DNA of 64,000 nt. Origin: Candidatus Aminicenantes bacterium (lineage in GTDB: Bacteria > Acidobacteriota > Aminicenantia > Aminicenantales > JAFGBC01). This document shows positions 10,800 to 14,161 of the stretch, piece after piece. Each line of letters starts with the position of its first letter. The first letter of the stretch is position 1. Below the pieces are notes generated by a model that saw only the letters and a program-made list of their open reading frames with translations, was not told where the DNA came from and made no database searches. The stretch is from NCBI GenBank assembly GCA_963702005.1, contig OY969696.1:3616001-3680000 (forward strand). Reading direction: 5' to 3'. The position numbers and the translations under genes are program-made.

Positions 10800-12875
10800 T
10801 CAGGCCTCCCGGCCCTCGACGACGGACAGGAACGACTCGATCCTGAGCCGGATCTGCTGACTGTCCGAAGGGGAATAATCGGTCTCGATCATAAGATAGG
10901 GAAGGCCGCGTTTGTCCTCCACGTGGCGACGGACGGCCCGTGCCTCAACGCTGTAAGTATGGCAAGCGCTCCAGACGAGGTCGATGACACCCTGGGGATG
11001 GAACCGCTCGATGAGCTCGTCAAGGAGCTCGAACCGGCCCGTGTTAGGCGTCATGCATGAGCAGGGCAGATGAAAATATTTCCGGGCGATCGCTTCGAGC
11101 GGATCGCCCTCGAGGCTGATATCCTCGACCAGCGGCTTGAGGCCCGTGCAATTTTCCTGAGCGACCACGACCGCTCCGGCTTCCTCGACGATGTCGATGA
11201 CTTTTTCGGCGCCGTGGGGCATCGGAACTCCCGTCATCAGGATGCGCGTCTTGCGGGAGGGAACGGCCTTGGCCCGGGCCTGCTCGATGACCGCCCGATA
11301 GGCCGCCAGGTCCTGGGGGATCCCGGAAATGAGGTTCTTGGCGTCCAGAATCTCGCGCCCGCTGAGCCCTCGTCCCCCGAATTCGGCGATCGTCCTGCGC
11401 AGGCGCCGCTCCTTGTTCATGAGCCGGATCGCCCGGCGGAGGCCCGTCCGGGTGATCCTAGCCCCCGTCAGTCTCTCGAGACGCTTCTTGAGGAGCCTGA
11501 CCTCGGACAGCCAGTGGGCGAAGGCTTCTTCCTGATCGGGCTTTTGGGTCAGCTCGAGCACGTGCATCGGCTTTGTCCGGCCCATAAGCTCATACATCTT
11601 CTTCTTGCCGTCGCAGGTCGTTTCGGCCACGATGAGGTCGGCCATCTCAAAAATCGGGTTGGCTTCCTCGAGCATGAAGCCGTAGGAGGACTTGATGAGG
11701 GGGCAGAGGTTGACCGGGAGTTCCCGCTCTCCGGCCAGGGCCATCTCGTGGCTTCCGCCGCAGGCGCAGACGGGAACGGCTCCCGCCGCCAAGATAAGCT
11801 CGCGGGGCGTGTATTCGCAGAAAATGCAGACGATCTTCTTCCCGGACGCCTTTGCCTTCCGGGCGTGATCGATGGCGATCGTGACCATGCGGTCGAACCT
11901 CTTGAGGGCCGGCACGGAGTGGAGATGAGCGGCCGCGCCCGAGGAGCCGGATTCGACCGGCCGCGTTGAGGACGCGGGAGCGGCTTCGGACGTTCCGCAT
12001 CGTGCCGGCTCGCCGTCCCGTCCGGCCGAGGGTCCGATCGGACCACTTTCCAACTTAGCCTTAGGGAGACGGCCCGATGCCAGGACCGTCCTCTTTCCGA
12101 TTTTCCGGGCCGCAAGCAGGGCCGCGCCCAGAGCGCCCGTCAGTCTGGGATCCTTAGGAACCCATAAGCGTTCCCTGAGCTCCCGGCCCAAAGCGATGAC
12201 CATGGCCCTGTTCAAGGCCACCCCTCCGGTGAAAACGACGGGCGCTTCGAATCTTCTCCGCTCGGTCAACCCGGCCACCCTCCTGGCGATGGCCCGGTGA
12301 ACGCCGGCGGCGATCTCCGGCCTCCCCACCCTTTTAGCTAGAAGGCCGATGACCTCGCTCTCGGCGAATACGACGCAGGTCGAGCTGATCTCGAGTTCGC
12401 GGCGGGCCCCGGCGGCGAGCTCGGCCATCCCGTCGATGTCCGTCCTCAGGATGCCGGCCACGACTTCGAGGAAGCGGCCCGTGCCCGCCGCGCAGCGGTC
12501 GTTCATGGCAAAATCCTTGACCGAGCCTTCGGCGGACAGATAGATGGACTTGCTGTCCTGGCCGCCGATATCGATTACGGTCCGCGCCCGCGGAAACAGG
12601 GCCAGCGCGCCCACGGCATGACAGGTGATCTCGGTCACGACATCGCCGCCGAGCTCGGCCGTGTAGCGCCCGTAGCCGGTCAGGATGGTGGCGGCGACAT
12701 GAGAGGGCCGCAGCCCGGCCTCGTTCAGAACGGCCTTGAAGATCCGTTCGGCGTCGGAGCGATGATCGCCGGTCGCGTCTGCGACATGCGCGGCTACCAC
12801 GACGCGGCGGCCGGTGTCGAAGAGGATCGCTTTGACGGCCCGGCTTCCCAGGTCGATACCGGCGGTGATTTTCAT
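10800..12875 (-). CDS. Fusion of ATP-dependent activase (HgdC/BcrAD/YjiL-type) and double-cubane-cluster / 2-hydroxyacyl-CoA dehydratase-family protein (YjiM-type)
   Basis: N-half has GIDLGS, TGYGR, TEITCHA, DIGGQDSK, MNDRCAAGTGRFLE, STCVVFAESE and FTGGVA. After a low-complexity linker, the C-half has FCEYTP, NLCPLIKSSYG, ETTCDGKKKMYE, ENCTG, CSC, ACHTY and IETDYS. Confidence 0.9.
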   Translation of the reverse strand: MKITAGIDLGSRAVKAILFDTGRRVVVAAHVADATGDHRSDAERIFKAVLNEAGLRPSHVAATILTGYGRYTAELGGDVVTEITCHAVGALALFPRARTVIDIGGQDSKSIYLSAEGSVKDFAMNDRCAAGTGRFLEVVAGILRTDIDGMAELAAGARRELEISSTCVVFAESEVIGLLAKRVGRPEIAAGVHRAIARRVAGLTERRRFEAPVVFTGGVALNRAMVIALGRELRERLWVPKDPRLTGALGAALLAARKIGKRTVLASGRLPKAKLESGPIGPSAGRDGEPARCGTSEAAPASSTRPVESGSSGAAAHLHSVPALKRFDRMVTIAIDHARKAKASGKKIVCIFCEYTPRELILAAGAVPVCACGGSHEMALAGERELPVNLCPLIKSSYGFMLEEANPIFEMADLIVAETTCDGKKKMYELMGRTKPMHVLELTQKPDQEEAFAHWLSEVRLLKKRLERLTGARITRTGLRRAIRLMNKERRLRRTIAEFGGRGLSGREILDAKNLISGIPQDLAAYRAVIEQARAKAVPSRKTRILMTGVPMPHGAEKVIDIVEEAGAVVVAQENCTGLKPLVEDISLEGDPLEAIARKYFHLPCSCMTPNTGRFELLDELIERFHPQGVIDLVWSACHTYSVEARAVRRHVEDKRGLPYLMIETDYSPSDSQQIRLRIESFLSVVEGREA

Positions 12876-13075
12876 CCAACGCTCCTTTCAGTGGGAATCT
12901 GGCCGCTCCCCCTGAAAGGAGCCGGGCGGGGCTTTTCAGACGAGAGCGGAATTCGGGCTCTGACCGGGAAGGGATCGAACCGATCCCCTAAATCCCGCTC
13001 AGGACGAGTTGAGGATGAGCCATGGTCTCATCGTCCCGCTCTCCTTTCAAGAGATGCCCCGGAGTAGGCTCCGGA
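12876..13075 (-). promoter_or_regulatory. Structured 5' leader with uORF, SECIS-like hairpin and SD-sequestering stem
   Basis: Perfect 11-bp pairing of GCUCCUUUCAG (12922-12912) with CUGAAAGGAGC (12891-12881, main SD). Hairpin AGGGGAUCG-GUU-CGAUCCCUU (12989-12969). 5' hairpin CCGGAG-CCUA-CUCCGG. Confidence 0.65.
12936..13031 (-). CDS. Leader micro-ORF MRPWLILNSS-UGA(Sec?)-AGFRGSVRSLPGQSPNSALV
   Basis: Strong SD AAAGGAG 9 nt before ATG 13031. UGA at 13001-12999 is followed by a SECIS-like stem-loop. Next stop is at 12938-12936. Confidence 0.5.
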
Positions 13076-13096
13076 TCAGATCCGTCGGTGAGAGAA

Positions 13097-13125
13097 TAAA
13101 TACCATCGGGGGACTCTAAAGTCAA
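13097..13125 (-). promoter_or_regulatory. Putative sigma70 promoter for the leader/dehydratase transcript
   Basis: TTGACT-17 nt-TATTTA with an upstream TG. The -10 is imperfect. Confidence 0.45.
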
Positions 13126-13165: not shown

Positions 13166-13194
13166 TTGACTTCATACCTCCGTTTTAATATTCT
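13166..13194 (+). promoter_or_regulatory. Putative sigma70 promoter for serine hydrolase
   Basis: TTGACT-17 nt-TATTCT. Confidence 0.55.
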
Positions 13195-13237: not shown

Positions 13238-14161
13238 ATGAAGAAATTCGAAAGAACGGCTGTCGTCGGACTCATTATCGTCATTGGACTGGCGTCGACC
13301 TTGGCGGCGGCCGATAAGGCCGCGATCCTCGATCAGAAGTTCGAGGCGGGCTTGAAGGCCGTCGCCGACGGCTTGGACGGAGTCATGGGCTATGCCATCA
13401 AGGATATCAAAACGGGGAAAGCCTATCTTCTCAACGAGAAGGAGGTCTTCCCCCAGGCGAGCTCCATCAAGATCGCGATCCTGCTCGAGGTCTTCAAGCG
13501 GGCCGAGGAGGGAACGCTTAAGCTCGACGAGAGGATCGACCTCACCCCGGACAAGAAGGTCGCCGGGAGCGGCGTCCTCTACTATCTCGGCTTCCCGTCG
13601 CTCAGCCTTTCCATCAAGGACATCTGCGTCCTGATGATCGTCCTCTCCGACAACACGGCCACGAACCTCCTGATCGACCGGGTCGGGATGGAATCCGTCA
13701 ACAAGCGGATGGACGCGCTCGGCCTTCCCGCCACCCGGCTACGGCGCCGGATGATGGACCTCAAGGCCGCCGCGGAAGGCCGCGAGAACGTCTCGACGCC
13801 CCGGGAGATGATGACTTTACTCGAGAAAATCTGGAGCGGCGCCGTTCTTAAAGAACCCCTGCGGACGGGGATGCTCGATATCCTGTCTATCGAGAAGGAG
13901 AGCCCCCTGCGCGCCGGCGTCGCGGCCGTCGCAGAGGACATCGCCGTAGCCGAGAAGCCGGGCGAGCTCGAAGCCGTCCGTTGCGACTCCGGGATCGTCT
14001 TCCTCAAAGACCGGCCTTACATCATCTCGGTCATGACGACCTATCTCAAGCGGGACGGCGACGGCAACCCGGCCATCGCGGCCGTCTCGCGCCTGGCCTT
14101 CGAGCATTTCCTGAGGCTCAAGCGCTCGAGCGACCTGGGCCGGGTCGTTTCGATGAAGTAA
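13238..14161 (+). CDS. Secreted serine hydrolase, class A beta-lactamase-like fold
   Basis: GGAGG SD, signal peptide, SxxK (ASSIK), SDN and KPG motifs. Confidence 0.85.
   Translation: MKKFERTAVVGLIIVIGLASTLAAADKAAILDQKFEAGLKAVADGLDGVMGYAIKDIKTGKAYLLNEKEVFPQASSIKIAILLEVFKRAEEGTLKLDERIDLTPDKKVAGSGVLYYLGFPSLSLSIKDICVLMIVLSDNTATNLLIDRVGMESVNKRMDALGLPATRLRRRMMDLKAAAEGRENVSTPREMMTLLEKIWSGAVLKEPLRTGMLDILSIEKESPLRAGVAAVAEDIAVAEKPGELEAVRCDSGIVFLKDRPYIISVMTTYLKRDGDGNPAIAAVSRLAFEHFLRLKRSSDLGRVVSMK

Follow-up and report, generated by a model that had tools for sequence, protein, structure and literature searches.

A conserved mRNA leader with a UGA-terminated upstream reading frame and a selenocysteine-insertion-type hairpin, a possible selenium-status switch of an anaerobic reductase gene

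In a 64,000-nucleotide stretch of DNA from a Candidatus Aminicenantes bacterium (GCA_963702005.1, contig OY969696.1, positions 3,616,001 to 3,680,000; hereafter the window), the gene of an anaerobic reductase is preceded by a conserved mRNA leader of about 215 nt, in which a tiny upstream open reading frame (uORF) ends at a UGA that is followed by a hairpin of the selenocysteine-insertion (SECIS) type. This arrangement may decide whether the ribosome-binding site of the reductase gene is unmasked, and would in this case be a selenium-status switch of a kind that has not been described before. The leader was recognized in 11 sequences from about 5-6 lineages, namely 6 genomes of one order and 5 metagenome contigs, and all share a short uORF ending in UGA, an 8-bp hairpin (P2) with compensatory changes, an in-frame second stop inside a mimic of a Shine-Dalgarno (SD) sequence (X), an anti-SD (Y), and the SD of the regulated gene (Z). 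Individual sequences are denoted by L numbers and genomes by G numbers in the following, and the leader of the window together with its two close relatives is referred to as the window group, as opposed to the 8 distant leaders. The features are compiled in Table 1, all being read on the minus strand.

Table 1. Features of the leader and of the downstream gene (window coordinates).
Feature	Coordinates	Strand	Description and support
Promoter-like site	13097..13125	-	TTGACT (13125-13120), 17-nt spacer, TATTTA (13102-13097); inferred transcript start near 13090; aligned positions in L002, L146, L147 and L266 carry TTGACA-17-TAGAAT; not listed by a consensus scan whose rule requires T at position 6 of the second hexamer
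SD block of the uORF	13041..13049	-	UGAAAGGAG; overlaps a 5' copy of GAGAGCGGG that can pair with P1'; conserved in L141 and L142, absent as a strong SD in the 8 distant leaders
uORF	12999..13031	-	10 codons (MRPWLILNSS), ATG at 13031, ending at UGA1 (13001-12999)
P1, 5' strand	12991..13000	-	GAGCGGGAUU; starts inside UGA1 and pairs with 12953-12944
P2, SECIS-type hairpin	12970..12988	-	stem +14..+21 with +25..+32, triloop GUU at +22..+24 (12980-12978), closing pair G21:C25
P1', 3' strand of P1	12944..12953	-	AAUUCCGCUC; can also pair with the 5' copy at 13043-13035 and with GGGAGCGG (12909-12902)
X, SD mimic	12932..12939	-	CUGAAAAG; contains the in-frame second stop UGA2 (12938-12936)
Y, anti-SD	12912..12922	-	GCUCCUUUCAG
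P4, inner stem-loop within the Y-Z hairpin	12893..12910	-	part of the MFE fold; distant leaders carry CCGGGCG...CGCCCGG at this place, with a G:C to A:U change in L145
Z, SD of the main gene	12881..12891	-	within CUGAAAGGAGC; contains the third in-frame UGA (12890-12888)
Main gene	10800..12875	-	691 aa; acyl-CoA dehydratase-type activase ATPase fused to a double-cubane-cluster anaerobic reductase domain; Pfam PF01869 and PF06050; NCBIfam NF040772 405.5 bits (cut-off 350); TIGR00241 240 bits

The leader had first been noticed in a sequence-only reading, and the observation made there is confirmed. The block UGAAAGGAG indeed occurs twice, at 13049-13041 and at 12890-12882, and GCUCCUUUCAG pairs perfectly over 11 bp with CUGAAAGGAGC, with an additional inner stem. 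This pairing is part of the MFE structure (-103.7 kcal/mol, z -3.41, 0 of 200 shuffles folding as well). The same anti-SD can pair with the uORF SD block over 9 bp plus CGGG/CCCG, and GAGAGCGG pairs with CCGCUCUC. The uORF start lies 156 nt from the main ATG (12875) and in frame with it, the only in-frame stops between them are the UGA codons at 13001, 12938 and 12890, and thirteen bases lie between UGA2 and the stem. The sequestration of the SD is more than chance, as among 3258 SD-led ORF starts (150 aa or longer) of the genome only 2 have a perfect complement of 11 nt or more to their SD region 26-100 nt upstream, and the gene described here is one of them. Other details are lineage-specific: the third UGA is missing in L142, the frame link to the main start is broken in L146 (121 nt), and identical SD blocks exist only in the 3 window-group leaders.

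The interpretation offered in that reading, a translational attenuation in which the fate of the ribosome at UGA1 depends on Sec-tRNA and SelB, is partly supported, its Sec/SelB idea largely so. Supported are a conserved attenuator-like arrangement with a sequestered SD, the presence of Sec machinery, and a hairpin after UGA1 that has the spacing, the closing pair and, in 7 of 11 leaders, the loop type of genuine SECIS elements of the same genomes. Also the expectation that no known RNA family would be recognized was borne out, since no Rfam model matched the leader strand at E up to 10, but as Rfam gave no hit on a genuine SECIS of this genome either, its silence says nothing about SECIS. Not supported as a general feature is the proposed toggle, in which the anti-SD pairs with either the uORF SD or the main SD, because this is possible only in the 3 window-group leaders, whereas in all 11 leaders the conserved competitor for the anti-SD is the SD mimic with the second stop. 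The frame link to the main ATG and the series of exclusively UGA stops are likewise not conserved, and the proposed positioning of a ribosome at UGA2 against the stem does not hold in the window group, where such a ribosome would end 3-4 nt before it (offset 16 nt).

The model R1 of the leader found one copy each in 6 genomes (6 of 151 genomes in one search, and 2 of 87 in another, both already among the six), which together covers 194 of the 246 genomes of the order, and five further copies lie on metagenome contigs upstream of orthologues. BLASTN with the leader core over the 246 genomes gave only chance-level hits and missed the true homologue in G018. A strict IUPAC pattern hit 11 of 401 genomes of the phylum including G000, but the other 10 hits, one of them in the genome G269 that is flagged as unpublished and on which no claim rests, have non-matching palindromes and look like chance, the reversed pattern giving 1 hit as a control. 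All 11 leaders descend from one ancestor, and counts over them are therefore not independent.

An ATG- or GTG-started ORF of 6-13 codons ends at the aligned UGA in 11 of 11 leaders. Both differences between L146 and L147 are synonymous, as are 3 of 5 changed codons between L269 and L270, and in the window group the changes CTC>CTT, AAC>AAT and CGC>CGA are seen. The peptides differ between lineages (MRPWLILNSS, MNTGNL, MTIKNL, MFRHNL, MIRTTHRL, MRTNCR, MNTYCR), and there is no common arrest peptide apparent. After the UGA the frame stays open for 19 or 21 codons to the second stop in 11 of 11 leaders, this stop being at codon 21 in the window group and at codon 19 in the 8 others (UGA in 3, UAG in 6 and UAA in 2 cases). 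The in-frame position is partly automatic, as the domain length is fixed at 57 nt in 5 lineages and a U followed by two purines is a stop in 3 of 4 cases, and the putative read-through peptide shows no clear excess of synonymous change. UGA also already accounts for 51% of the stops in long ORFs of this genome.

In the alignment of P2, 97.7% of cells are paired, and 2 pairs carry compensatory changes in 8 cells (UA<->CG and GC<->AU, 4 sequences each), a score reached by 0 of 500 shuffles. The P2 stem sequence is highly conserved and the spacing from the UGA to the loop is invariant in 11 of 11 leaders, while the junction between P2 and P1' varies in sequence and carries a 6-nt indel. A P1-type duplex of -10 to -29 kcal/mol is found in all 11 leaders, but its register differs between lineages and it is nearly lost in L270 (-10.1 kcal/mol). 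Y:Z duplexes have 11-16 pairs (8-11 contiguous) at -16 to -24 kcal/mol in 11 of 11 leaders, X:Y duplexes range from -7 to -17 kcal/mol, and X, Y and Z co-vary three ways (CUGAAA/UUUCAG/CUGAAA, AGAG/CUCU/AGAG and AAGGA/UCCUU/AAGGA).

A standard for SECIS elements was obtained from the same genomes. A thioredoxin-like protein has its Thioredoxin_7/_2 domain spanning an in-frame TGA, and of its 16 matches in 5 other leader-bearing genomes 14 carry a TGA, the other 2 being C-terminal pieces. The 14 distinct SECIS sites have 8-9-bp stems, which are invariant, and a triloop at +22..+24 closed by G21:C25, with the loops GGU (11 sites), GUU (2) and GUC (1). The leaders have an 8-bp stem with the same positions and the same closing pair in 11 of 11, with the loops GUU, GUC, GUU, GGU, GGA, GGU, GGC, GGC, GGC, GUC and GUC. 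Seven of the 11 are thus found in the genuine set, whereas four (GGC three times, GGA once) were not seen among the 14 sites and lack U. The only conserved apical-loop feature that is named for bacterial SECIS is a G (PMC1794560), which is the first loop base in all 11 leaders. Only 13 of 118180 TGA trinucleotides in the genome have this geometry, and of the 3 longest stems one is the leader and one is the selenoprotein. The hairpin geometry of the leader matched genuine SECIS elements closely enough that the same simple scan recovered selenoprotein genes in this genome. The other selenoprotein candidates of G000 have their loops at +23 or +26. Searches for a Sec formate dehydrogenase as a further standard gave none, the one TGA-containing match being a NuoG-like region with no Sec.

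SelB scores above its cut-off in 6 of 6 leader-bearing genomes, against 100 of 246 in the order, but this co-occurrence is weak once the rates of the individual families of the order are used (21 of 27 in family f3, 40 of 87 in family f4), the product of the family rates being about 0.17. tRNA-Sec is present in G000 and G018, selD in G000, and selA plus a selD-like AIRS-domain gene in G018. In G018 the orthologue lies 10-17 kb from selA, the selD-like gene, selB and tRNA-Sec, but as unrelated genes are in between, this proximity is regarded as a coincidence.

Equilibrium folding with ribosome footprints gave mixed results, and such folding of long GC-rich leaders is unreliable. In the 8 distant leaders, Y begins 5-9 nt after the second stop, and masking a footprint at this stop raised the predicted openness of the SD in 7 of these 8, for example from 0.02 to 0.50 and from 0.14 to 0.85. 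In the window group, a footprint at the second stop opened the SD in 0 of 3 leaders (0.12/0.12/0.12 and 0.07/0.07/0.12 across the states), and in L142 the openness rose only with a ribosome at UGA1. A footprint at UGA1 opened the SD clearly in 2 of 11 leaders (L002, 0.13 to 0.76; L142, 0.24 to 0.50) and changed little in 8 of 11, L146 rising only from 0.37 to 0.48.

The explanation that accounts best for these data, although it is held to be only about as likely as not, is a translational attenuator whose sensing step is the decoding of a UGA followed by a SECIS-type hairpin. In this view, Y pairs with Z in the resting fold and initiation at the first gene of the operon is blocked. A ribosome translating the uORF would reach UGA1, where P1 begins, with the P2 loop at the position of genuine selenocysteine insertion elements in these organisms. 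If the SelB-GTP-Sec-tRNASec complex is available, it would bind P2, and the ribosome would pause, insert Sec, and run on for 19-21 codons to the stop inside X, thereby melting P1 and P2 and, in 8 of 11 leaders, also moving onto the 5' part of Y, so that Z is released and the operon is translated. Without the complex, RF2 would terminate at UGA1, the leader would refold, and the SD would stay masked. What the analysis itself establishes are the conserved parts, their pairing, the SECIS-like geometry and the co-occurrence with selB, whereas uORF translation, SelB binding, Sec insertion and the sign of the response are inferred in the absence of expression, ribosome or selenium data, an activation by selenium being only slightly favoured over the opposite. 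The regulated enzymes have no known link to selenium. In the window's own lineage, the methyltransferase and two reductase genes that follow the leader elsewhere are gone, and the SD serves the fused activase-reductase gene directly.

If the reading is correct in its full form, to which slightly less than even chances are given, the leader is a selenium-status sensor built from the genetic code itself, in which SelB-delivered Sec-tRNASec and RF2 compete at the UGA of a leader ORF and thereby decide whether the SD of a methyltransferase/double-cubane-reductase operon is unmasked. It would be the first recoding-based attenuator for selenium and would tie an enzyme system of unknown substrate to selenium metabolism. 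Beyond the binding of SelB to the selAB leader in E. coli, it is largely unknown how bacteria sense their selenium status, and a uORF whose stop is a bona fide Sec-decoding site would give a direct, cis-encoded read-out of charged tRNASec/SelB. It also points to a possible physiological context for a double-cubane-cluster reductase operon with an ArsM/UbiE-like methyltransferase. No paper joining SECIS with a bacterial uORF or leader, and none on double-cubane proteins together with attenuation, was found in the literature searched.

The strongest alternative, possible but considered less likely, is an ordinary uORF-dependent attenuator of the ermC/cat type without any role of selenocysteine. 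A ribosome terminating or dwelling at the uORF stop would melt P1 and, in the distant leaders, the pairing between the uORF end and X, so that X captures the anti-SD and exposes the SD, and the UGA and the hairpin spacing would simply follow from a stop at the foot of a two-tier helix. The conservation of the uORF, P1, X, Y and Z agrees with this, X pairs with the last uORF codons in L002, L266, L146, L147, L145 and L268, the modelled effects of a footprint at UGA1 in L002 and L142 fit, and Erm-type attenuation is well documented (PMC5118997, PMC5499644). However, a footprint at UGA1 has little effect in most leaders, the peptide is not conserved, and neither the exact +22..+24 G-first triloop with a G:C closing pair shared with genuine SECIS nor the invariant spacing and the in-frame second stop inside X are explained.

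It is unlikely that P2 is merely a SelB operator, a SECIS mimic that binds SelB-GTP-Sec-tRNASec as in the E. coli selAB leader and sets SD access by stabilizing or blocking a fold, without Sec being inserted. The geometry and the selB co-occurrence apply here equally and there is the E. coli precedent, but that element lies 3 nt from the SD, whereas P2 is about 80-100 nt upstream of the regulated SD (about 80 nt in the window), and a mere binding site needs no start codon, no in-frame UGA at the canonical distance and no in-frame second stop, all of which are kept in 11 of 11 leaders. Equally unlikely is a metabolite riboswitch or a site for another protein, with P1, P2 and the junction as aptamer or operator, X/Y/Z as expression platform and the uORF as incidental. 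The layout resembles such a combination, P2 is highly conserved, and as no known family matches, an undescribed class is possible, but the variable junction and the changing register of P1 are unlike a ligand pocket, and the uORF is kept in 11 of 11 leaders. The palindrome could also be a DNA operator, but it lies about 110 nt inside the transcript; this possibility, a T-loop mimic and a +1 frameshift site were rejected by reading the sequences only. A long Sec read-through fusion to the main protein was rejected because in-frame UAG or UAA stops follow in the distant leaders and L146 is out of frame, and a selenoprotein inside the regulated operon was rejected because reading TGA as U in L271 and L272 gives 6 TGA each, which indicates frame changes rather than Sec. 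That the hairpins only stabilize the mRNA or are remnants with chance resemblances is very unlikely, since, despite the lack of experimental data and the weakness of equilibrium folding, the leader is conserved across families while the downstream gene content changes, P2 and X/Y/Z show compensatory changes, and the anti-SD helix ranks 2 of 3258 in the genome.

With the bacterial SECIS elements, such as that of E. coli fdhF (loop numbering G23/U24) or those of the thioredoxin-like selenoproteins of the same genomes, the leader shares an in-frame UGA, a lower helix that includes the UGA, an upper 8-9-bp hairpin with a G-first loop at about +22..+24, a frame that continues past the UGA, and the Sec machinery in the genome, but the element sits in a 6-13-codon leader ORF and not in an enzyme gene, its putative product has no conserved sequence, is too short and too variable for a homology comparison and has no known Cys homologue, and four of 11 loops fall outside the observed genuine set. 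With the ermC, cat and cmlA leaders it shares a short leader ORF, an SD held in a hairpin, and an alternative pairing that would free the SD when a ribosome occupies the leader, but the proposed trigger is recoding of a stop codon and not drug-induced arrest on a specific peptide, the peptide is not conserved, and there are an extra SECIS-type domain and an SD mimic carrying a second stop. In tnaC, where Trp blocks termination, and in prfB with its +1 frameshift at UGA, downstream expression is set by the fate of a ribosome at a leader or early stop codon, as is proposed here, but tnaC uses a conserved 24-residue peptide and Rho, prfB senses RF2 by frameshifting, and neither uses a SECIS hairpin or an SD sequestration of this form. 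In the selAB 5'-UTR of E. coli, a SECIS look-alike couples the SelB/Sec-tRNASec status to translation, as is proposed here, but there the hairpin represses by binding alone and regulates the sel genes themselves, whereas here it follows a uORF UGA, lies far from the SD, and would regulate a methyltransferase/double-cubane reductase operon.

The gene behind the leader codes for 691 aa and starts 363 nt from a divergent class-A beta-lactamase-like gene. Its N-terminal half is an acyl-CoA-dehydratase-type activase ATPase, and its C-terminal half matches the NCBIfam equivalog for the double-cubane-cluster anaerobic reductase above cut-off (405.5 against 350 bits), and therefore the term "reductase" used in the sequence-only reading is apt. 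Every sequence feature that this reading had listed is present at the stated coordinates, and the observation itself holds. The hairpin that masks the SD is part of the MFE structure, at -103.7 kcal/mol and z -3.41, with 0 of 200 shuffles folding as well. When 3258 SD-led ORF starts of the same genome were taken as a control, only 2 had a perfect complement of 11 nt or more to their SD region lying 26-100 nt upstream, and this gene is one of them. Another gene start, outside the window, has a 10-nt perfect anti-SD (GCCTCCTTTCC ... GGAAAGGAGGT) about 50 nt upstream and is one of 9 genes in the genome with a complement of 10 nt or more.

Coordinates of the genes and sites discussed (G, genome, G000 being that of the window; C, contig; L, fetched locus)
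Feature	Sequence	Position	Strand
Activase-reductase fusion gene	window	10800-12875	-
Class-A beta-lactamase-family protein (PF13354), signal-peptide-like N-terminus	window	13238-14161	+
Sigma-70-like site	window	13166-13194	+
Gene start with a 10-nt anti-SD	G000:C1	541093	-
Thioredoxin-like/TPR selenoprotein	L273:270-1793 = G000:C1	about 2162569-2164092	- (L273)
Second thioredoxin-like/TPR copy, TGA	G000:C1	1013502	+
Example of the paralogues with TGA in a GGU-G..D.Y context	L286:1-2043 = G000:C1	2076964-2079006	
Leader, orthologue and sel genes of G018	L260/L261 (G018:C31)	28000-58000	
First double-cubane-like gene of the G131 operon	L271	3775-4812	-

Relatives of the leader were not usefully found by BLASTN, but protein-guided fetching gave close orthologues with collinear leaders, L141 at 86% and L142 at 81% identity, which together with the window's own leader are referred to as the window group, and also more distant orthologues that share the same blocks, namely L002 (from genome G018), L145, L146, and L147, which is identical to L148. 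A covariance model of the core found exactly one copy in each of 6 genomes, that is 6 of 151 in the order, and no further ones among the 87 genomes of one family (2 of 87, both already known), so that in total 194 of the order's 246 genomes were searched. This added leaders from the genomes G213, G212, G131 and G135. The set comprises 11 distinct leaders from about 5-6 lineages, and as they share one ancestor, the counts given for them are not independent. The 16 bases GGATCGGTTCGATCCC of the window's P2 are also contained in a repeated element of about 80 nt in the loci L133 and L135 of the genomes G221 and G024, which is present in at least 3 contigs of G221 and 2 of G024 and looks like a dispersed repeat.

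In G131 and G212, the leader precedes four genes: a SAM methyltransferase (Methyltransf_11, with only sub-threshold similarity to DVU_1556-type and ArsM-type families), two HGD-D/double-cubane-like proteins, and the activase-reductase fusion. The first double-cubane-like gene of the G131 operon appears frame-shifted, as the HGD-D match stops at profile position 223 and 5 TGA follow in that frame, which could be an assembly error or a pseudogene. In G213 and G018, only a remnant of the methyltransferase ORF follows the SD, and in several lineages, upstream of the fused gene in the loci L266, L002, L158 and L207, the methyltransferase gene is reduced to a short remnant ORF (MK..G..L.DVQ.VY.G...), of which in L207 only the N- and C-terminal ends remain. 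In the window group, the SD serves the fusion gene directly. The leader has thus been kept while the first gene behind it changed.

The shared anatomy begins with a promoter-like site, followed by a uORF of 6-13 codons with an ATG start (GTG in L142) that ends at UGA in 11 of 11 leaders, and by P1, a helix whose 5' strand begins in or next to the UGA, whose register differs between lineages and which is weak in L270. Then follow the 8-bp hairpin P2, a variable junction, P1' as the 3' strand of P1, the purine-rich SD mimic X, which contains a stop codon in the uORF frame (codon 21 in the window group and codon 19 elsewhere; UGA in 3, UAG in 6 and UAA in 2 leaders), the anti-SD Y, an inner hairpin, and the SD itself, Z. 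Y:Z duplexes of 11-16 pairs, 8-11 of them contiguous, at -16 to -24 kcal/mol, exist in all 11 leaders. X, Y and Z change together, with CUGAAA/UUUCAG/CUGAAA in the window group, AGAG/CUCU/AGAG in the L002 type, and AAGGA/UCCUU/AAGGA in L269 and L270, and this three-way agreement is the best evidence for a real switch between X:Y and Y:Z. P2 is 97.7% paired and has two compensatory pairs, and 0 of 500 shuffles reach the observed score. The sequence-only reading had proposed a toggle in which one anti-SD pairs with either the uORF SD or the main-gene SD. This is possible and, as an isolated duplex, strong in the window group, but the distant leaders have no such SD block, and the toggle is therefore a lineage-specific addition. 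Also the frame link between the uORF and the main start, which that reading had included, is broken in L146, and the third of its in-frame UGA stops is missing in L142.

The presence, start codon and stop position of the uORF are kept in all 11 leaders. Within close pairs the changes are often synonymous, 2 of 2 between L146 and L147, 3 of 5 changed codons between L269 and L270, and three in the window group, whereas between lineages the peptides are unrelated, so it is probably the act of translation that matters and not the product.

The further suggestion of that reading, that Sec-tRNA/SelB availability at the uORF stop UGA1 sets access to the SD, could have failed at several points. The genome has selD, selB and tRNA-Sec, and all six leader-bearing genomes have selB above cut-off, against 100 of 246 genomes in the order, but because selB is common in the relevant families (21 of 27 and 40 of 87 genomes in two of them, f3 and f4), this alone is weak. 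In G018, the leader and orthologue lie 10-17 kb from tRNA-Sec, selB, a selD-like AIRS-domain gene and selA on the same contig, with unrelated genes (ABC membrane protein, amidohydrolase) in between, while in G000 the sel genes are 2.8 Mb away, and this proximity is treated as coincidence.

To obtain the organism's own SECIS standard, G000 was scanned for TGA-interrupted ORFs, and this revealed a secreted thioredoxin-like/TPR protein whose Thioredoxin_7/_2 domain spans an in-frame TGA at the CxxC position (GGUGSC). Of its 16 matches in the five other leader-bearing genomes, 14 carry a TGA, and the remaining 2 cover only the C-terminus; tandem paralogues occur in G018, G213, G131 and G135, all with a conserved TGA and SECIS. 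The 14 distinct SECIS sites are uniform, with an 8-9-bp stem and a triloop at +22..+24 (counting the U of UGA as +1) closed by G21:C25, and with the loops GGU (11), GUU (2) and GUC (1). The leader hairpin P2 has an 8-bp stem, a triloop at +22..+24 and a G21:C25 closing pair in 11 of 11 leaders. All 11 loops start with G, and a G is the only conserved apical-loop feature named for bacterial SECIS in PMC1794560; in 7 the loop comes from that same set, whereas the other four (GGC, GGA) fall outside it. The UGA-to-loop spacing never varies, although the junction downstream has a 6-nt indel. Across G000, only 13 of 118180 TGA trinucleotides have this geometry with 7 or more pairs, and of the 3 longest stems, one is the leader, one is the selenoprotein, and one is an out-of-frame site inside a transporter gene. 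Rfam recognises neither the leader nor the genuine SECIS, and its silence is therefore uninformative here. About 13 paralogous proteins of roughly 660-830 aa in G000 also have an in-frame TGA, in a GGU-G..D.Y context; the one checked is a BNR/beta-propeller-like protein close to the F510_1955 glycosylhydrolase family. In most copies the TGA is followed by a near-identical palindromic hairpin, CGUCUACA[GGUC]UGUAGACG, with the loop at +23 or +26 (12 of the 13; one copy has a degenerate loop), and this may be an expanded selenoprotein family.

A decoding-based attenuator is therefore favoured, and to this extent the interpretation of the sequence-only reading is supported in part. In this view, SelB-Sec-tRNASec bound to P2 would compete with RF2 at UGA1, and read-through would carry the ribosome through P1 and P2 to the stop inside X. 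In the 8 distant leaders, Y starts 5-9 nt after that stop, which is inside a ribosome's downstream reach, and masking a footprint there raises the modelled SD openness in 7 of those 8. In the window group, the offset is 16 nt (9 in L142, for an extended duplex), and modelling shows no SD opening with a ribosome at this second stop, while a footprint at UGA1 helps only L002 and L142. While the conserved parts, their pairing and the SECIS-like geometry are seen in the sequences themselves, the sign of the response is therefore inferred, and so are uORF translation, SelB binding and Sec insertion. For the window's own leader the step from read-through to SD release is not explained; it may depend on kinetics, on P1'+X pairing with Y plus GGGAGCGG, or on the 5' SD block. 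With four loops outside the genuine set, no expression data and a common ancestry of all the copies, the favoured reading can be held only as about as likely as not.

Among the alternatives, a Sec-independent uORF attenuator explains the switch but not the SECIS geometry. A SelB operator without decoding has a precedent in the E. coli selAB leader, but does not need the start codon, the in-frame UGA or the second stop. A metabolite riboswitch is unlikely given the variable junction.

No bacterial uORF or leader that uses a SECIS was listed in the literature searches. The proposed element would be a variation on what is already known from leader-ORF attenuation, from recoding sensors and from the SelB/SECIS-like operator, and what would be new in comparison to these is the sensing step.
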